A DNA stretch of 64,000 nucleotides from a virus. Its lineage: Duplodnaviria; Caudoviricetes. How positions within the stretch are numbered: position 1 is the first letter of the stretch; each line of letters opens with the position of its first letter. The notes under the pieces are model-generated. The model was not told the origin of the DNA, ran no database searches, and was given only the letters and a program-made list of their open reading frames with translations. Where the stretch lies: positions 32,001-96,000 of the IMG/VR virus record IMGVR_UViG_3300016725_000002; one strand, written 5' to 3'. Shown one piece after another: positions 7,323-33,732 of this stretch. Made by a program: the position numbers and the translations under genes.

Positions 7323-8191
7323 GCATCATCTCCATAATTGAGTTGATAATAATAATGACATCCTTCACAATACTTTGGTAATTCATCTAAATTGAATAAT
7401 TTATTTGTATATAAAGATATTAAGTTGTGCTGATTAATTTCTTGTGTAATACTTTTATTAAAGAGATTACCACATTGATATATAACTTTACGCTCTACAT
7501 CAATAGCACAAGTATAATAAGAATTAGCACATTGTAATCTTTGTTCATTATATTTTTGAGGATTTAAAATACAATCTAGCACTTCATTACACTTTAATTG
7601 ATACATATGATTTGGATACATATTAATAAAGGAACGTATATCCTGTACTAAATCAGTTACTTTTATTGAATCTACTTTATTATTAACTATTTTGAACTCT
7701 GAAAATGTACTTAGATAATTAGTTTCATCAGGATGATGTAATAAATATGCTAATATATTCTTGGTTAATATAACCAAATTACGCTGGTTCTTCACATAAT
7801 CCATATTATAAAACTTCAACAATTCTGTTTCAGTTGCATCATAAATTAGATGTTCGTTATACCAAAGTTTTGGTCTATCACATATAGTTATTCTTTTTCT
7901 AACTAATCCATTAGATAAGATTTGAAATCTAGTTACATTAGGATAGCTATAAACTAGATTCATTGCATCAACTAAATTGGTTGCTAACCCAGGCTCACCA
8001 CCTGAAAATTCAACAAACATAGGTATATGTAATTTAGCGTATGTTGTTAACACTTGTTCTATTAACTTAATATCAATTGTATAACTCTTATTATTTATAT
8101 GAACATTGTTTTCATATACTGGATAGTTACAATATGAACAATGCTGATTACAATTATGCGAAAGAATAAACTCAAGAAAGATTGGTTTCAT
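7319..8191 (-). CDS. Radical SAM protein, short family (start reassigned to MKPIFLEF)
   Basis: CNQHCSYC, SGGEPGL, LSNG; ATG at 8191 has an AAGGA RBS and avoids a long overlap. Confidence 0.88.
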   Translation of the reverse strand: MKPIFLEFILSHNCNQHCSYCNYPVYENNVHINNKSYTIDIKLIEQVLTTYAKLHIPMFVEFSGGEPGLATNLVDAMNLVYSYPNVTRFQILSNGLVRKRITICDRPKLWYNEHLIYDATETELLKFYNMDYVKNQRNLVILTKNILAYLLHHPDETNYLSTFSEFKIVNNKVDSIKVTDLVQDIRSFINMYPNHMYQLKCNEVLDCILNPQKYNEQRLQCANSYYTCAIDVERKVIYQCGNLFNKSITQEINQHNLISLYTNKLFNLDELPKYCEGCHYYYQLNYGDDA

Positions 8192-9767
8192 AATAGATTT
8201 CCTTAAATTTACTCCATACAGTTTGTTTATCTCCATATTTTTCATATAATGCAAATACAATATTAATTCTATTATCAAAACAAATAAGTTTATCAAAGTT
8301 CTTTATAAAACTAGTTCCATAGTTTTTCAATCTATTAAAGATGTTAACCATTCCAGATTTTTCTAAATATTGAAATAAATTATACTTTGTATCTAAAGTT
8401 ATCTGAAATTTTTCAGGGTTTCTATGAAATTCACAATCATAATATAGAATAAATAAATTATATATAATTGTATTAATAACATCTTCATTGAAGTTTTCTT
8501 GAATCCAAGTTAATGAATCTTCAAATTCTGTAACAGAAGCATAAGGCATATTGCCAATAAAATTAGTACAAATGAACATATTATGTTCATGTAGAATCAT
8601 AATTTTTTCTTGAATCTCTTTTAGTGTAATATATTTTTGAATATACTTAAGATGTTCATCATTAGCAGATTCAATACCAACATTAACTGCTTTTACACCT
8701 ATCTCCTGCATTAATGCTACTTTTTCTTCAGTAATATCTTTTAATCTAGCACCTACAAACAAGTTTAGTTTTAAATTATTTCTACTAATGAAATTTGCTA
8801 AAGGATCAAGTATTCTAAAATTAGACACACTTGGGTCTAATAACATACATGAATTGAAACCAACATCTGTAAATGATTTAAAACCCACTAATGATTTTTC
8901 AATATCTCCAACAGAGTGTTCAGTTGTTCCCTTAGCACTATTTGTACAAAAAGCACAAACTCCATTACAATAATGAGATTTACTTAAATTATAAATAAAG
9001 GTTTTTATATTTGTGTCAAAACCTACAATATGTTTTAAATTACAATCATATAAAGAGTCATTCATTTTTTCATTAAACGTATAATCTTGAAGTTCTGAAA
9101 CAAAGTTAACATCTAATTTTTGAAAATTAACATTAGTATCAAATTGATTTAGGTTCTTTCCTAATACTATTTTAAACTTTGAGAATTTATCTAATTCTTC
9201 TTTACATATATCTTCAAAAAACTCACCACCAATAAAGATATTAGTTGTTTTAGTATAAATAGTTTCAAGGATACTTTTATTATATGTAAGTATATTCATC
9301 CCAGCTTCTGATTGTTTAGAAATACTATAGTACACTTCACTATGCTCTTCAATTGTAGAGTCTATAATTGTATAAATATATTGCATCATTTCATCTACTT
9401 GTTCTTGACTGGAAAATGAATAACAATTCGTTTTATTAAGAATTAATGTATCTAAATCAAGTATAATATCAGGCTTAAAAAAGTTAGCTAAAATATAAAT
9501 GTTATAAGGAAATACTTTATCAATATAATTAGGTTTAAATATTTCAGTATTACGATTTACTAAATTAATTGCATCATCTCTATTTAAATCACTAAATATA
9601 AGACGGCGTTTAGTATAGAAATGAGCAGGTTCAATATTAATATTTATATCATTTTGTTCACCCTTAACTATTATTCGTTTATTTTGAGTATAAATAATCT
9701 TGTTATCAATTGTTAATGGGTATTTTCTAGCAAAGGCTGTTGTTAACCCATTAATTAAAATCTTCAT
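8172..9767 (-). CDS. Long radical SAM protein with B12-binding-like N-terminal region (class B-like)
   Basis: IFIGGE, CNGVCAFC, VGIESANDEHLKYIQK, NFIGNMP. Confidence 0.8.
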   Translation of the reverse strand: MKILINGLTTAFARKYPLTIDNKIIYTQNKRIIVKGEQNDININIEPAHFYTKRRLIFSDLNRDDAINLVNRNTEIFKPNYIDKVFPYNIYILANFFKPDIILDLDTLILNKTNCYSFSSQEQVDEMMQYIYTIIDSTIEEHSEVYYSISKQSEAGMNILTYNKSILETIYTKTTNIFIGGEFFEDICKEELDKFSKFKIVLGKNLNQFDTNVNFQKLDVNFVSELQDYTFNEKMNDSLYDCNLKHIVGFDTNIKTFIYNLSKSHYCNGVCAFCTNSAKGTTEHSVGDIEKSLVGFKSFTDVGFNSCMLLDPSVSNFRILDPLANFISRNNLKLNLFVGARLKDITEEKVALMQEIGVKAVNVGIESANDEHLKYIQKYITLKEIQEKIMILHEHNMFICTNFIGNMPYASVTEFEDSLTWIQENFNEDVINTIIYNLFILYYDCEFHRNPEKFQITLDTKYNLFQYLEKSGMVNIFNRLKNYGTSFIKNFDKLICFDNRINIVFALYEKYGDKQTVWSKFKEIYYETNLS

Positions 9768-28009: not shown

Positions 28010-28044
28010 AAAAATAGGCTCGTAACCGAAATTACGAGCCTATT
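28010..28044 (-). terminator. Rho-independent terminator after the tail tube gene
   Basis: ataggctcgtaa-ccgaaa-ttacgagcctat stem with T-run on the minus strand. Confidence 0.85.
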
Positions 28045-28047
28045 ACG

Positions 28048-28584
28048 TTACACTTTTTCTTTGTTGAAATAGTCGTATGCAATGGAAAGAGCGGGTTTTA
28101 ACGGGTCAGCCGTAGCTGCATCTGCATCACCCTTTGTTGCTCCACCCAACTGACAGCCATATAACGTAAACTTATAATAAGGTTTATCTTGGTTATCAAG
28201 TAAATATAATATCATTGTACATTCAATATTTTTCTTATAATCAGTAGTACCCGGTGAACCATTCTTAGATGCCCAACCTGCTTCCTGCCAATCACCGAGG
28301 AATTGCAAGCAATAACCATCTGTTGTTTCATTAAGTGTTAATGTAATAGGAGAGTTATATGTACCAATACCTTGCTGGCGTACTTTATTACCACGAATTT
28401 GAATTTCCGTAGTTTCAATTTCCAATTCAGGTATTGACATTGATTCAGCACGAAAGTTGATATTATCAGTATCATAACTTCCAGTTAATGCAGAAGGAAA
28501 GGAAGAAAAAGCAACTGCCCATCTGAATGTTTGGGAAAAGTTGCCTAAAGAACGTAAATTTTCAACTGTTGGTCTATACGCCAT
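28048..28584 (-). CDS. Tail tube protein (T4 gp19-like); start at MAYRPT
   Basis: FRW...SMSIP...IRGNKVRQQG...ITLTLNET...FTLYGC...AYDYF; AAGGAG RBS before ATG at 28584. Confidence 0.8.
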   Translation of the reverse strand: MAYRPTVENLRSLGNFSQTFRWAVAFSSFPSALTGSYDTDNINFRAESMSIPELEIETTEIQIRGNKVRQQGIGTYNSPITLTLNETTDGYCLQFLGDWQEAGWASKNGSPGTTDYKKNIECTMILYLLDNQDKPYYKFTLYGCQLGGATKGDADAATADPLKPALSIAYDYFNKEKV

Positions 28585-28594
28585 ATTTTTCTCC

Positions 28595-28942
28595 TTAAAC
28601 AACCATGGGTATTTTTGTTAATTTAACTTTATACTTAGAGGCTAACTTACGAATGACAGGATAGATTTCTTCAGGAAAAGAAGTATTTCTATCAACTGTA
28701 ATTTTAATATCCTTAACGTGTTCACCATTATCATATTCTGAAACGGTATACACAGTATTAAGTTTATCTTCATTATAATGAACTTTAGTAATAGCTAACT
28801 TGCAACTTGATAACTGGGGAGAAAATTCCCCTAAAATAACAGAACCTCTAGTAGCTAAATATATGCATTCAGCAGGAAGAGATACTTTTATGTATGCTCC
28901 TGCTGTCACTTCTTGTTTTGTAGTGACTTCAACTAGCTTCAT
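28595..28942 (-). CDS. Hypothetical protein
   Basis: 115 aa, AAGGAG RBS, MKLVEVTT leader. Confidence 0.65.
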   Translation of the reverse strand: MKLVEVTTKQEVTAGAYIKVSLPAECIYLATRGSVILGEFSPQLSSCKLAITKVHYNEDKLNTVYTVSEYDNGEHVKDIKITVDRNTSFPEEIYPVIRKLASKYKVKLTKIPMVV

Positions 28943-28966
28943 AAGCTTCTCCTTAATAAAAGTAAA

Positions 28967-29024
28967 TGGGTTAGGGTAGATAGTTAGGGCTATCTACCCA
29001 AAGGGAGCTACCCTCTGTCCCCAA
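28967..29024 (-). repeat. Structured 58-nt motif, copy A
   Basis: TTGGGGACAGAGGGTAGCTCCCTTTGGG-N20-CCCTAACCCA; identical to 30804-30861 except for a 20-nt hairpin. Confidence 0.85.
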
Positions 29025-29066
29025 ATTTGGTTAAACTGTAATGCTGAAGGATGCGCCTGTTTTTGT

Positions 29067-30770
29067 TTAAACTACACATTGTTTTATTACCTCACAATTA
29101 TTTATTTCTTTAATTAGCTTCTTTTCAACTTTAGCAGTAATATGCTTCGGTTTACCTACAGAAGCATTATAATTTTGAGTTACTTTTTCTAAGTTATATC
29201 TGCAATTATTCCAAGTAATACTATCTTTATGATTAACAACATGTCTATCTTTCATTGTCATATTTAAGATATATCTATGAAATCGAATTGCATCTTTATT
29301 GGAAATAACGTAGTTTCCGTCACGCAATTGCCATTTAAATGCAAAGGCTTGTTTTAAATCCTTATAATCAAATATAAAGAATCCTTTAGTGCAATACATT
29401 TTCACTACTTTGTTACCTCTAAATGAGATAACATCATAGGATTGCTTTTTGCTATATTTCATATTTTGTATGGCATCAATTAACGATTCTGATAACTTCC
29501 AAGAATCTTTATGTTTTATAAACTCTTGTTTAGTAATTTTATACTTTTTACACACTTCTTTCATATTATTTAATGGATAAAATAATGGAAATTTATCCAT
29601 TATTGCGGTTACGGCTTTATTATATAAATAAGCTGATTTAACTCTAAGTAATGGATCATCTCTTCCAGAGCAAATCTTAATATACTTCAAATTAGACCAT
29701 TTAACATTAAATCCACAAGTAATATATTGTTTAGTACCACGTTTATTGCTTATAAATAACCCATAAATTCCTAACTTTGTTTCCTGTAAGAAGAAACAGT
29801 TTGCTGAAATATCAGCGTAGCTAGTAATTTTGATGGGTTTACACTTTAGTTGTTTTGCATAATATTCTACATCTAACTTTTCATTAATATCATCTCCATA
29901 TTTATCAATAAGGTAGTTTTTAATACATATTGCGGCCATTAAAGTTTTTGGACGTAATTCAATTAGCTGCCCATTAGAAGTTTGAAATCTTAATCTGTAT
30001 CCTCTGGTTTTACCAATACTAAGATCAGTAATGCCAGCAATACCTGTGTTAGATCGTGATTTAATATTCTTTGAATTGTGACTTATAGTTACACTTCGTA
30101 AATTATTACGAGTATTATCTAGTTTATTTTGATTACGGTGGTCAACAACATAACCTGATTTTACAGGTAAAACTAACTGATGAAGGAACCCAAGTTTTGG
30201 GTTATATGCATATCCTCTAGTAGCTAAACTCCAACGATACCCTTTTACAATATTTAAATCCTCAATAGAAACATAAGTGCATCCAACTTGCTCGCTTTGG
30301 CGGTTAAGAAGCTGCACTTTAACTTTATCTCCTAATATTTTTAGCCTACTAGGCTTCAATTTATTTGGAGTACAGTCATCCAAATCTAAGGAATCTAAGT
30401 TAGATAAAAATTTAGGTTGTTTTATATGGTGTGGTTTGAAATTTTGAGGATTAACACCAATAGGTAGCAACATTAAATTTTTACGTCTAAAATCAAGTTT
30501 ATTATTATTACGAAATGCTACATAATATCCATTAACATATTTTACAAGTGTTTGTTGTAATAATGTTCTATCTGTATATTTATTAGAGTTAGATATAAAT
30601 ACCCTTAAATCTGTTTTATTTAATCTCCAACGATATTTCTTTATTTTATCATAATCTTGTTTATCAAGTAATATCTCATTAAATTTATTGTTATATTTAT
30701 CTACTATATGTAAATGTACACCCATTCCATCTATGTGATATGGGTTTGGCTGAAAGCAATGTGTTTTCAT
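29067..30770 (-). CDS. Free-standing HNH homing endonuclease with repeated HNH-like modules
   Basis: VVDHRNQNKLDNTRNNLR, FRNNNKLDFRRKNL, VVNHKDSITWNNCRYNLE. Confidence 0.85.
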   Translation of the reverse strand: MKTHCFQPNPYHIDGMGVHLHIVDKYNNKFNEILLDKQDYDKIKKYRWRLNKTDLRVFISNSNKYTDRTLLQQTLVKYVNGYYVAFRNNNKLDFRRKNLMLLPIGVNPQNFKPHHIKQPKFLSNLDSLDLDDCTPNKLKPSRLKILGDKVKVQLLNRQSEQVGCTYVSIEDLNIVKGYRWSLATRGYAYNPKLGFLHQLVLPVKSGYVVDHRNQNKLDNTRNNLRSVTISHNSKNIKSRSNTGIAGITDLSIGKTRGYRLRFQTSNGQLIELRPKTLMAAICIKNYLIDKYGDDINEKLDVEYYAKQLKCKPIKITSYADISANCFFLQETKLGIYGLFISNKRGTKQYITCGFNVKWSNLKYIKICSGRDDPLLRVKSAYLYNKAVTAIMDKFPLFYPLNNMKEVCKKYKITKQEFIKHKDSWKLSESLIDAIQNMKYSKKQSYDVISFRGNKVVKMYCTKGFFIFDYKDLKQAFAFKWQLRDGNYVISNKDAIRFHRYILNMTMKDRHVVNHKDSITWNNCRYNLEKVTQNYNASVGKPKHITAKVEKKLIKEINNCEVIKQCVV

Positions 30771-30803
30771 GTTACTTCCAATTAGAGTTGGAGTTTTTGG
30801 TTT

Positions 30804-30861
30804 TGGGTTAGGGAAAGCATCTCTAACTACTTTCCCAAAGGGAGCTACCCTCTGTCCCCAA
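30804..30861 (-). repeat. Structured 58-nt motif, copy B (upstream of the HNH gene)
   Basis: Same flanks as copy A; central hairpin GGGAAAGTA-GTTAGAGA-TGCTTTCCC. Confidence 0.85.
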
Positions 30862-30867
30862 GTTTTA

Positions 30868-33732
30868 TTAAACAGTAATACTGAATGAGGATCCGGTTTT
30901 TGTTATCACGATTTTGCCAAAAATATATTCCACGGACTTTGTAGGCTGTATAAATACCCAAACATTCATAATATAGTTATCAATGTCTTCAGCAGAGTTG
31001 TTGGTATCATCACACACAATCTTGTATGTGTAAACACCACGGCGACTCTGAATATTCTTCATATAACTATCAAGACCAACTGTAACCAAGTCACGGGTTA
31101 TCTGGTCATTAAGTTCAAATAAGAAATCATCCAAAAATTCTTTAATTGCAGGTTCAATAACTATTAATAGCATACGAACATTCACTCTATCAAGAGCGGT
31201 TGCCTTACGATATAATGTCTTATTACCCCAAATTCTTATGCCCTTGGTAAGACTGAAAGAGATAGGGTTAATTGAGTTATTATATAATTCATCCTCTTCA
31301 CCTTCTTCCCAAACTTTGGAAAGACCAAGGACGTTTAATACACCGCGGGTGTTACCAGCAACAGGATACCAAGCTTCCTGATATTCTGCGGTATGGCTCA
31401 TATTTGCAGCCACATGACCCACAGGGGCAACATAGATCTCACGATTATTGAATTTATCATAAATTTTAAGGTGAGGAGAATACATTGCTGCATAGCTTGT
31501 ATTCGCCATTAACACCTCATTTCTATAATCAATTACGTCCTGCATAGCATTGCTTGAAAGTTCATCAGAAAGACGTGAAGAGAGCAGCCCAATACTGAAC
31601 TGACGAGATTCACACAAACTGATAATAGCCTGCTGGTATGCAGCAACAGTATAACCACCATCTATAATGACGTTACAAGTATAACGGCGCACGTTAGCTA
31701 GTTTCTGAATAGCTAAAATCATTGCACCTGTAGTAACAGCAGAGCCATTGCTACCATTAGCTAACTTCAAAAGAGTAGTTTGATTAGCTGGATAAATATT
31801 CTCATTAACATTTGTATTATTGATTACTCCAATGTAATTACTACGTTTAACTACATCGTCACAATAGATGCTAACTTGTGAATCGTCAACTGCATCCTGA
31901 TGACGTGACATTAACCAATTTTCAACATTATCAAATGTTCCATCTTCAAGCTTTTTAAATACAGAAACTTTAAAGCTATTAGCAACACCTAAAGTACGAG
32001 CTAACACTTTTTCATCTGCTGTCCAAGTGTCGCTAGTACCATAAGGATAATGCTGTGAAGTAATATAAATATTTTCACCTGTACGAGTTTTATTATAAAA
32101 CAACATACAACCCTGATTAAAGCCAGTATATTGTGTATTATGTGTATCCTGCAATAAGTGTGACTGACCTAATTCAAGGTCAAGAATACCGGCATCAAGA
32201 ATATCAACTGGTATTCCAAGTTCAGCATTAACTGCTGTGGAAGCCAGCATGATTTTATTAGCAGTTTTCGTCTTTATCATATAATAAGTAGCACTTGAAG
32301 TTAACCCGGTAGGTAATGTTCCTGTGCTTGAAACAGTACAACTATATCCTGTTTCAATGTTTTCATAAAGAGTATCAGTGATAGTTAATGTATCCTTGGA
32401 TAAGTCAACTTTACCATTTGAAGTATCAACTTTATCTAGCAATGTAACAGTTAATGTATCAGAAACAGCTAATGTACCAGTAAAGTTGATGGCTACACCA
32501 TCTTTACTTGTAGATAACTGAATTAAGTTATTAACACCTTTAATGACATAATAAATATTATCTTCAGACAGGGGAGCAGCACCTGCAACTGTAGGATATG
32601 TACCACTGGCTGAAATACTTAATTTACATCTGTCATTCTTTGCACACAACTGATAAAAACTAGTTGAAGTAGTAAGAGTATCATTAACAAAGTCTAATTC
32701 TGTAGCAGTAATAGCAGTAATATTTGTTAAAGAGTTTAATTTTAATGTGAAGGTAGCACCTGCAACAGAAGAGAAGGGAATGAAGGAACCCTTAGCTGCA
32801 TCAGAAGCAGAAGAAGCAAGTTGTAATTTATACTTATCCTTATTAACACCCGTCTGGGGAATTACAATGGCATATACAATGGTATCAGGATATAAAGTAG
32901 GTGTAGAAACAGGCATATCAGCAGCATTACCTGCTATTACCAATTCCGTACCTGTTACGCAACAAGTCCAAAACTGTTTAGACACAGTAACTTGAGAGTT
33001 TCCTGTATCAACAGTAAATGTAGAGTTAAGACCAGCCATTTTACCATCACTGGTATCTAACTGGTAAGTATCAGGATCAGTAAAACCAGTAGCTATTTCA
33101 GCATTGGGTTTATCGTTACCAAAGTTTAACAGTATAGCAGAACCACCAGTTCCACTAAACTCAATGTAAACACCAGCAGAAGCATTGGCATAGCTGGTAG
33201 CAAGTCGATATGAAAATGTTTCTTCCTGATACGGAATTAAATAATATTTAACACCAAGAGTTAATCCATTAGGAAGAGTATCTGAATTTTCAGCGGAGAA
33301 AGTAAATACATCACCAGTGGAAATACTTTTCCACATGATTTCAGCAGCAACTAATTCTTCTGTAGTAACATTACGAAGATTGACAGTAAATAACCCATCG
33401 TTAAAGGTAACTCCAACTGTATTATAAGGTTTATCCTGATTAAGAATGCAACCACCATAAAGTGATCCATCCTCTGCACGGGAAACCCACAGTTTATTAC
33501 ACTTTTCAAGAACAGCAAGGTTACAATAATGAGCCAAGTCATCACCAGGACTCACTTTTTCATACACAGTATAACGTCTTAAATAATCAGTATCACTTGT
33601 AATAAGAACGGGTTTAAACTCACCTTTATTGGTCTTTAATGCTGTACCAACATACAGACCCGGAAAAGAAGGAACACGTTCGCTTAAATCAACCTCTATT
33701 ATTGTAGTTCTAGCACGACCACTGGGTATCAT
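30868..33732 (-). CDS. Contractile tail sheath protein with a large repeat insertion
   Basis: IIEVDLS N-terminus; WYPVAGNTRG, LYNNSINPI, IWGNKTL, DRVNVRML, FELND, IQPTKSVEYI. Confidence 0.92.
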   Translation of the reverse strand: MIPSGRARTTIIEVDLSERVPSFPGLYVGTALKTNKGEFKPVLITSDTDYLRRYTVYEKVSPGDDLAHYCNLAVLEKCNKLWVSRAEDGSLYGGCILNQDKPYNTVGVTFNDGLFTVNLRNVTTEELVAAEIMWKSISTGDVFTFSAENSDTLPNGLTLGVKYYLIPYQEETFSYRLATSYANASAGVYIEFSGTGGSAILLNFGNDKPNAEIATGFTDPDTYQLDTSDGKMAGLNSTFTVDTGNSQVTVSKQFWTCCVTGTELVIAGNAADMPVSTPTLYPDTIVYAIVIPQTGVNKDKYKLQLASSASDAAKGSFIPFSSVAGATFTLKLNSLTNITAITATELDFVNDTLTTSTSFYQLCAKNDRCKLSISASGTYPTVAGAAPLSEDNIYYVIKGVNNLIQLSTSKDGVAINFTGTLAVSDTLTVTLLDKVDTSNGKVDLSKDTLTITDTLYENIETGYSCTVSSTGTLPTGLTSSATYYMIKTKTANKIMLASTAVNAELGIPVDILDAGILDLELGQSHLLQDTHNTQYTGFNQGCMLFYNKTRTGENIYITSQHYPYGTSDTWTADEKVLARTLGVANSFKVSVFKKLEDGTFDNVENWLMSRHQDAVDDSQVSIYCDDVVKRSNYIGVINNTNVNENIYPANQTTLLKLANGSNGSAVTTGAMILAIQKLANVRRYTCNVIIDGGYTVAAYQQAIISLCESRQFSIGLLSSRLSDELSSNAMQDVIDYRNEVLMANTSYAAMYSPHLKIYDKFNNREIYVAPVGHVAANMSHTAEYQEAWYPVAGNTRGVLNVLGLSKVWEEGEEDELYNNSINPISFSLTKGIRIWGNKTLYRKATALDRVNVRMLLIVIEPAIKEFLDDFLFELNDQITRDLVTVGLDSYMKNIQSRRGVYTYKIVCDDTNNSAEDIDNYIMNVWVFIQPTKSVEYIFGKIVITKTGSSFSITV

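Follow-up and report, generated by a model that had tools for sequence, protein, structure and literature searches.

A phage-specific three-way-junction leader, duplicated around an HNH gene, that probably masks the ribosome-binding sites of nuclease genes

Why should a short repeat stand on either side of a homing endonuclease gene among the tail genes of a phage? The case lies in a 64,000-nt stretch of viral DNA (positions 32,001 to 96,000 of IMG/VR record IMGVR_UViG_3300016725_000002; Duplodnaviria, Caudoviricetes), referred to here as the window, and the sequencing runs that contain this phage are bioreactor and wastewater metagenomes. Two copies of the repeat, A and B, bracket the HNH gene. 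An earlier note, made from the sequence alone, considered three readings of them: a conserved cis-regulatory RNA that controls translation, an element tied to endonuclease mobility, and a simple target-site duplication. We conclude that both copies are, with good probability, members of a widespread, phage-specific, cis-acting mRNA leader that masks the ribosome-binding site (RBS) of nuclease genes, likely throttling their translation, and that the element was duplicated here through the insertion of an HNH cassette. Structure, covariation, strand specificity, the position of the Shine-Dalgarno sequence (SD) and start codon, gene association and the anatomy of the insertion were computed, and from these we infer translational repression.

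The two 58-nt copies were found where they had been reported and are read on the minus strand (Table 1). They form the junction part of a longer element, a 101-nt direct repeat (family D1; copy A, 28967-29067; copy B, 30804-30904; 83% identical), so that the repeat as first described was right for the junction and too short overall. The additional part is 37 nt of sheath coding end, covering the last 11 codons and the stop. In copy B it is the true end of the tail sheath gene (30868-30903; TKTGSSFSITV, then stop), in copy A it reads TKTGASFSITV and stop, and nearly all nucleotide differences between the two are synonymous. A 26-nt core, GGGGACAGAGGGTAGCTCCCTTTGGG, occurs exactly twice both in the window and in the whole 161,660-b viral contig, where 0 occurrences are expected by chance. 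Copies A and B adopt the same three-way junction of helices P1, P2 and P3 (z-scores -3.2 and -2.6 on the minus strand); folding of the plus strand of copy B was poor. The 20-nt segments in which the copies differ, already described as extending the hairpin, are unlike in sequence, yet each builds the third hairpin, P3.

In both cases the loop of P3 (L3) has a partner at the RBS of the next gene. Copy B carries L3 UUAGAG (30826-30821), which is fully complementary to CUCUAA, the loop of a small hairpin (P4) with the SD-like GGAAG of the HNH gene in its 3' strand, and the result is the perfect 6-7-bp kissing contact that had been proposed; the start codon is at 30770-30768. For copy A, the proposed match of CCCUAA to 5 of the 6 positions of UUAAGG (28956-28951) was confirmed, and UUAAGG lies in the loop of a CUUUU/AGAAG hairpin ahead of an open reading frame (ORF) of 115 codons, ORF115 (SD AAGGAG; start codon 28942-28940). 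The start codon follows CUAAC by 36 nt in copy B and 27 nt in copy A, on the same strand and within the 27-41 nt found across the family.

This family has the layout P1 - GGACAGAGG..CCUUUG (P2) - variable P3 - CUAAC - P1'. The exact 26-nt core and a strict pattern returned nothing in IMG/VR, so a relaxed pattern was needed (GGACAGAGG-N5-12-CCTTTG-N6-30-CTAAC), which matched 27 IMG/VR loci and 83 metagenome loci, with complementary flanks in almost all. A covariance model, R1, recovered 32 + 60 copies at E below 1e-6, among them some that deviate from the pattern and some that are the second or third on their contig. About 70 distinct junction copies occur in other phages (IMG/VR and metagenome contigs). 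Copies A and B contributed to R1, and the core that they match recurs in these roughly 70 independent copies. When run on the window's own genome, R1 found the two copies only and no third, degenerate one. Weak model matches at window 60136 and in locus L003 (about 18 bits) were discarded, and a pattern match in L016 was taken as chance (flanks unpaired, 28 bits); here and below, loci carry our own L numbers and sequencing runs X numbers.

The distribution is almost entirely viral. Among 185,579 prokaryotic species genomes there was a single pattern match (L040, 5252-5323, minus strand), on a 63-kb contig of a metagenome-assembled genome labelled Promethearchaeota; since the element is otherwise confined to phages, a mis-binned phage may be the source of this contig. 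A blastn search of the locus against GenBank phages gave no match. A cultured example is Enterocloster phage CB457P1 (OP172753.1; L124), which has a diverged copy, at 40 bits, ahead of an I-TevI-like gene of the GIY-YIG type. In that phage a complete group I intron core (2123-2454; Rfam 93.6 bits) ends about 35 nt before the leader (2489-2560). The window has no Intron_gpI match, so no group I intron core was detected around the HNH ORF.

Sequence conservation and covariation are distributed in a characteristic way over the consensus, P1 - G A - P2 (CAGAGG..CCUUUG) - P3 - CUAA - P1'. The junction-adjacent nucleotides are invariant, namely the P1-closing G-C pair, the GA of J12, the first three P2 pairs (C-G, A-U and G.U) and the CUAA of J31. 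The sequences of P1 and P3 are variable, and the inner five P1 pairs and six P3 pairs covary freely. Across 52 distinct metagenome sequences 91.9% of cells are paired, and 262 cells show double changes, compared with 88 +/- 8 in shuffles and 40-79 with slid partners; the IMG/VR set behaves in the same way. RNAalifold, run on an unfitted MAFFT alignment, returned the same three helices with nine compensated pairs. Distal P2 pairs exchange among the copies found by the covariance model only (CAGGGG/CCCUUG, CAGAGU/ACUUUG and CAGGCA/UGCUUG), and the first three P2 pairs never change, these copies included. The invariant wobble pair and the fixed orientation together place the signal in the coding-strand RNA. 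In three variants (L019 11926-11998, L029 3147-3219 and L019 1580-1648) J31 reads CUUA in place of CUAA, and one of them also changes J12 from GA to GU, a hint that the A of J12 may contact the second-to-last base of J31.

The loop-loop contact is likewise a property of the family. In nearly every member the P3 loop, which mostly consists of CC and four or five further bases, can pair over its entire length with a stretch 14-24 nt past CUAAC. This stretch ends in GG and is followed by AGG, together forming the SD GGAGG; the 3' partner of L3 ends in GG in about 47 of 58 cases. The longest duplex between L3 and its partner loop (L4) averages 6.46 bp, against 4.91 +/- 0.11 bp when loops are matched to another member's downstream region. 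The bases that flank L4 pair with each other, typically as ACCU/AGGU, and are exchanged for AUCU/AGAU, AUAU/AUAU and others (C-G to U-A exchanges). This P4 stem averages 3.86 bp, against 2.59 +/- 0.14 bp for permuted partners, a value reached in 0 of 500 permutations. The partner of L3 is therefore the loop of a small hairpin of 4-5 bp, and this loop and the 3' strand of the hairpin hold the SD. A kissing loop over the RBS is thus a defining feature of the family. The linker ahead of it is rich in A and T, and the motif AAUAAA(A)CCU recurs in it immediately before L4. Searching phage sequences with a covariance model recovered a covarying family, and the earlier idea of a conserved cis-regulatory three-way junction gains support from the roughly 70 copies and their family-wide loop-loop covariation; for control of translation the support is anatomical.

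This anatomy suggests a mode of action. Once the junction has folded, L3 would clamp the loop of the RBS hairpin, L4, and the whole SD would be paired. With the RBS buried, translation of the next gene would be held low or gated. In the window, leader B would control the HNH gene, and leader A stands ahead of ORF115. The HNH gene would then be carried on a strongly transcribed late operon and yet be poorly translated.

The genes behind the leaders are in keeping with such a role. Among 49 distinct downstream ORFs we found NUMOD3 (12), CapR (9), DUF4379 (6), MTES_1575 (5), DUF559 (4), HNH (4), HNH_3 (3), GIY-YIG (3) and TnpB (2), and most of these genes are homing-type nucleases of unrelated families (HNH, GIY-YIG, REase-like and TnpB). 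The suggested tie to endonuclease mobility is thus true by association, since most downstream genes encode homing endonucleases and the element moves with the HNH cassette. Many leader-borne ORFs are just 8-31 aa long, with endonuclease-like N-termini and a decayed look, as expected for homing endonucleases, which cycle through gain, decay and loss. On its upstream side the leader has either a long ORF, ending 7-46 nt before it as in the window, or a sigma-70-like promoter (L079, L022 and L041).

Two further observations concern these genes. The TnpB genes (OrfB_IS605 / Cas12f1-like TNB; L061 3442-4686 and L107 10373-11616) stand behind leaders whose L3 partner (UUAGCAG or UUACCAG) lies just ahead of AAGGAGG, and the module therefore also serves RNA-guided nucleases. 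Leaders also occur in arrays, three to a contig and 1.2-8 kb apart (L029 at 631, 1986 and 3147; L030 at 458, 4144 and 10074; L019 at 1580, 3743 and 11926), each before its own nuclease gene or decayed ORF.

Several points weigh against RBS masking by a nuclease-specific leader as the full account. Some members precede DnaD-like replication-initiator genes or, in degenerate form, tube genes, so that the link of the leader to nucleases is strong, not exclusive. The decayed leaders before tube genes include one almost devoid of P3 (L004) and one with a 4-bp contact (L008); in L007 a good contact precedes an ORF of 9 codons, and the tube gene, which has its own SD, begins 126 nt away. In the window, the copy A kiss carries a central mismatch, and RNAfold favours a different P4 register at ORF115, CUUUU/AGGAG, which likewise buries the SD. 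P2 was fixed by the search pattern, and its invariance therefore stems partly from ascertainment, which the copies found by the covariance model only relieve just in part. The HNH-free allele described below is based on one contig, from an RNA-seq library and a diverged strain. Finally, the invariant junction exceeds the needs of a plain RBS-masking hairpin, which makes the involvement of a ligand, a protein or a tertiary fold probable.

This last point leads to the alternative that survives best, which refines the masking leader and does not contradict it. A true switch, in which L3 docking depends on what the junction has bound (a small molecule, a protein of host or phage, or, by way of the P2 loop, a second leader), is a tentative but serious possibility. 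All the helices around the junction vary, whereas its nucleotides and the G.U pair are invariant, and the SAM-II, preQ1-II and guanidine-II translational riboswitches are built as an aptamer-like core that holds the SD in a tertiary contact. P2 loops are moreover enriched in self-complementary words: a palindrome of at least 6 nt is present in 10 of 31 distinct loops, where 1.4 are expected and the maximum in 1000 shuffles was 5 (UAGCUA, GUGCAC, CUGCAG, UUGCAA, UGGCCA, UGAUCA and UUCGAA). The P2 loops of A (29010-29006) and B (30847-30843) are identical. This self-complementarity, as a sequence feature, may point to dimerisation of leaders, although some P2 loops are not palindromic (GUCGCUC, GUUGCU). 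For a metabolite sensor, near-absence from bacterial genomes would be unusual, and the downstream genes show no metabolic theme. Autoregulation by the encoded protein is unlikely because the downstream proteins are mutually unrelated. That the family constitutes a new class of RNA switch for phage selfish nucleases, with a factor bound at the junction or two leaders paired through their P2 loops (here A and B on one message), is a more speculative and rather doubtful proposition; nuclease translation would in that case follow a signal, for example the infection stage or the number of leader-bearing transcripts. As a separate observation, the P2 loop of L012 reads AAGUGCACA and resembles the HIV-1 DIS loop.

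Whether the leaders could be bypassed by transcription depends on the operon in which they sit. Every gene of the region (sheath, HNH, ORF115 and tube) is on the minus strand, and the order of transcription is tail sheath, repeat copy B, HNH_3 endonuclease, repeat copy A, ORF115, tail tube and a strong terminator-like hairpin. The HNH gene is thus bracketed by the copies as first described, whereas the tube gene, then placed next to copy A, is separated from it by ORF115. The hairpin at 28013-28044 is the sole convincing terminator of the sheath-to-tube unit. No promoter was found upstream of copy A or copy B, and neither leader-RBS linker in the window contains TATAAATA, the T4-type late promoter, or a -10-like box; TATAAATA is missing from the whole minus strand between 28000 and 34000. 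With a single terminator and no linker promoter, both leaders are internal to one sheath-to-tube message.

Table 1 Features of the repeat, the leaders and the sheath-to-tube unit in the window.
Feature	Position	Strand	Basis and remarks
Tail sheath gene, 954 aa	30868..33732	-	Pfam Phage_sheath_1 + Phage_sheath_1C
Repeat copy B, 101 nt (sheath 3' end, then leader B)	30804..30904	-	Direct repeat D1, alignment
Leader B, three-way junction	30804..30861	-	RNA fold; covariance model R1 66.9 bits, E about 1e-15
Leader B, P1	30860-30857 with 30807-30804		J12 GA; J31 CUAA
Leader B, P2	30854-30848 with 30842-30836		Loop UAGCU
Leader B, P3	30835-30828 with 30819-30812		L3 GUUAGAGA (30827-30820)
RBS hairpin P4 of HNH gene	30777..30792	-	Fold; stem UCCAA/UUGGA, loop CUCUAA (30787-30782)
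HNH homing endonuclease gene, 567 aa, two HNH_3 stretches	29067..30770	-	Pfam HNH_3, E = 1e-15
Displaced original sheath 3' end (TKTGASFSITV, stop)	29031..29066	-	Alignment; in frame, directly after HNH stop codon
Leader A, three-way junction	28967..29024	-	RNA fold; covariance model R1 67.6 bits, E about 1e-15
Leader A, P1	29023-29020 with 28970-28967
Leader A, P2	29017-29011 with 29005-28999
Leader A, P3	28998-28990 with 28983-28975		L3 CCCUAA (28989-28984)
RBS hairpin of ORF115	28946..28962	-	Read from sequence; stem CUUUU/AGAAG, loop AUUAAGG
ORF115, 115 aa, no known family, behind leader A	28595..28942	-	No Pfam or PHROG match
Tail tube gene, 178 aa as called in identical contigs	28048..28602	-	phrog_45 + phrog_4542 (tail tube); gene call in L126
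Intrinsic-terminator-like hairpin, 14 bp G+C-rich + T run	28013..28044	-	Directly after tube gene; closes sheath-HNH-ORF115-tube unit

These findings bear on temporal control of the kind used by T-even phages, in which the read-through transcript would be silent and a promoter between P1' and L4 would yield a shorter RNA with a free SD. The mechanism is documented for I-TevI, I-TevII, I-TevIII, segB and mobE (PMC2988022), and the A/T-rich linker with its recurrent motif before L4 would suit it. Against it stand the linkers of the window, which offer no such promoter, and the evident promoters of the family (L079, L022 and L041), which sit upstream of P1, so that the whole leader is transcribed. 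We regard this explanation as improbable.

ORF115 itself is found in one protein cluster only (homologues 86% identical) among 5.8 billion clustered proteins, and a related-locus search with ORF115 as query found nothing. The gene order around it is the same in L126-L131. Sheath homologues at 58-69% identity have the tube gene directly next to them, and because these more distant relatives pass straight from sheath to tube, ORF115 is a lineage-specific extra gene at a sheath-tube hotspot. It was considered as a decayed piece of the HNH gene, which was ruled out as the two show no similarity; a 20-nt repeat (D6) between ORF115 and the HNH gene likewise found no support at the protein level.

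A structured RNA ahead of an endonuclease gene could also act in RNA processing or stability, as a self-cleaving ribozyme, an RNase entry site or a block to a 5'-to-3' exonuclease that separates or protects the downstream cistron. The core is invariant, a three-way junction whose P3 loop pairs downstream resembles the outline of flavivirus xrRNAs, and the GIR1 lariat-capping ribozyme provides a precedent for a structured RNA 5' of a homing endonuclease ORF. It had been thought that the element might match a catalogued motif. None was found in Rfam 15 (including int-alpA RF02996, ribozymes, riboswitches and xrRNAs) up to E = 10, either for the two copies or for ten canonical members, and the hammerhead core (CUGANGA, GAAA) is missing. 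A link to translation initiation is indicated, in addition, by the covarying partner, which in every case is the SD region, at a constant distance from the start codon. A role in processing is accordingly quite unlikely.

How the leader came to be present twice is recorded in the relatives of the phage. Four HNH-free loci (L004, L007, L008/L009 and the truncated L010) have one junction copy just past the sheath stop, and L003 and L005 have none at the sheath-tube site. An HNH-free allele was found in a contig from wastewater RNA-seq run X8, which joins sheath position 30917 to 29061 and skips 1855 nt. Between the two come 18 diverged letters, which read ..IVIT RTGASFSITV and stop, so that the sheath ends in the window's displaced copy; the sequence around GATAACCAGAACAGG represents this empty sheath 3' end. 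Both the X8 contig and the HNH-free relatives therefore keep a single copy. L131 (ORF115 86% identical) matches the window at 100% over the final 180 nt of the HNH gene, and identity breaks exactly at the HNH stop; the displaced sheath-end stretch that follows differs by four synonymous changes and one K to R replacement. Synonymous differences in the sheath end beside an identical HNH 3' end indicate that this stretch evolved as the coding end of each strain's sheath and that the HNH gene moved recently.

As read from these alignments, the mobile cassette consists of three parts, a substitute sheath end (37 nt), leader B and the HNH ORF, and its point of insertion lies 12 codons ahead of the sheath stop. 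The insertion moved the sheath end and leader A that were resident there downstream. The right insertion junction lies at the HNH stop codon, inside 9 nt (AACAAAAAC) that are identical to the start of copy B. In L006 the same sheath-tube gap holds a 576-aa HNH orthologue (8014-9744, minus strand; full-length identity 33%), which is inverted and has no detectable leader; the gap is thus a recurrent landing place for this endonuclease lineage. Joints in run X6 (28966 to 30804 and 30861 to 29032) were considered as an empty site and rejected, as they fit the arrangement of L131, in which the HNH gene is followed by the displaced sheath end and a leader with a B-type P3.

The leaders have been rearranged further. 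The A-position leader of L130 and L131 bears a B-type P3 that differs from copy B of the window by a compensated G-C / A-U exchange; this P3 finds no complement at the ORF115 RBS, which makes gene conversion between the two copies likely. Also noted, on one contig, was a loose end in run X8 at window 28967: the A-placed leader continues as CAAA-CCUUUCAU-UUAGGG-AUGAAAG-CAUGC. Here a 7-bp hairpin, CUUUCAU-UUAGGG-AUGAAAG, presents a loop that is a perfect complement of L3(A) CCCUAA, and an AUG follows. This sequence suggests that a different gene stands behind leader A in another strain, and that leader A may once have been matched to another gene.

Such exchanges count in favour of an explanation at the DNA level, in which the element is a homing or recombination target, or a portable stretch of homology like the PeSLs, and its fold is incidental. 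Leaders do swap parts between strains (L130 and L131), the sheath-tube site of relatives holds HNH genes in either orientation, relic leaders or nothing, and PeSLs, themselves repeated regulatory cassettes, bring about shuffling in T4-like phages (PMC4122927). G.U pairs, including the invariant one, would however become C-A mismatches on the other strand, and the element keeps a single orientation and its spacing to the SD and start codon, with compensatory changes in three helices and in the loop-loop contact. A purely DNA-level role is therefore very unlikely; the element likely serves as recombination homology as well, alongside its RNA function and not in its place. A functionless target-site duplication or chance repeat left by HNH insertion, although two direct copies do flank a mobile gene, can be set aside as practically negligible, since the copies span 101 nt at 83% identity with mostly synonymous coding differences, HNH-free relatives and the HNH-free allele retain one copy, and about 70 distinct covarying copies exist elsewhere.

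Homing endonucleases need enough expression to spread and not so much that the phage is harmed, and the controls known previously were gene-by-gene hairpins in T-even phages. The leader, as one module, serves HNH, GIY-YIG, REase-like and TnpB genes in unrelated uncultured phages; if it acts as proposed, it would give selfish genes a portable means of expression control and would be a compact example from nature of an RBS in the grip of a programmable loop-loop contact. The window is a snapshot of the spread of this module: because the cassette carries a replacement gene end along with its leader, the essential sheath gene stays intact, and the empty allele still circulates in wastewater. Enterocloster phage CB457P1, being cultured, makes the hypothesis testable at the bench.

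Full-text searches of the literature did not find this leader described. Fremin et al. 2023 (PMC10690425) reported candidate structured RNAs from IMG/VR, including cis-regulatory candidates upstream of phage genes; the main text of that paper describes no endonuclease-associated leader, and the family may be among its roughly 10,000 unnamed candidates. The PeSL cassettes of T4-like phages, composed of a sigma-70 early promoter and a simple terminator-like stem-loop (PMC2839356, PMC4122927), are, like the present leader, short repeated intergenic regulatory elements tied to indels and modular shuffling, and some members of our family have a sigma-70-type promoter just upstream. PeSLs, however, have no junction, SD contact or conserved core. 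We rejected identity with PeSLs, as no promoter precedes either copy in the window and the structure is a junction.

Kissing complexes are well known from the HIV-1 DIS and from ColE1 RNA I/RNA II, which share with the leader fully complementary loops of 6-7 nt; leader P2 loops are also often self-complementary hexamers. Those contacts, unlike the L3-L4 contact, are intermolecular and serve other functions. Closer in design are the SAM-II, preQ1-II/III and guanidine-II (kissing hairpins) translational riboswitches, which hold the SD in a tertiary contact, and the purine riboswitch, a three-way junction with kissing loops. The leader resembles translational riboswitches in its compact conserved core, its variable helices and an SD caught by a pseudoknot or kissing interaction; it differs in being restricted to phages, in having no Rfam match and in that the kissing partner lies outside the junction.

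The nearest functional counterparts are the T-even homing endonuclease genes (I-TevI, I-TevII, I-TevIII, segB and Aeh1 mobE), whose RBS-sequestering leader hairpins are relieved by an internal late promoter (PMC2988022). As in those systems, the nuclease gene here lies inside a polycistronic phage message, its SD is predicted to be buried in RNA structure and its expression is presumed to be low or late. The T-even structures contain a late promoter, whereas the window has no internal promoter. They are simple hairpins, each with its own sequence, whereas the leader is one conserved three-way junction, whose core is invariant and whose loop-loop contact covaries. And whereas each T-even hairpin is specific to its gene, the leader described here is common to unrelated nuclease families in unrelated phages.

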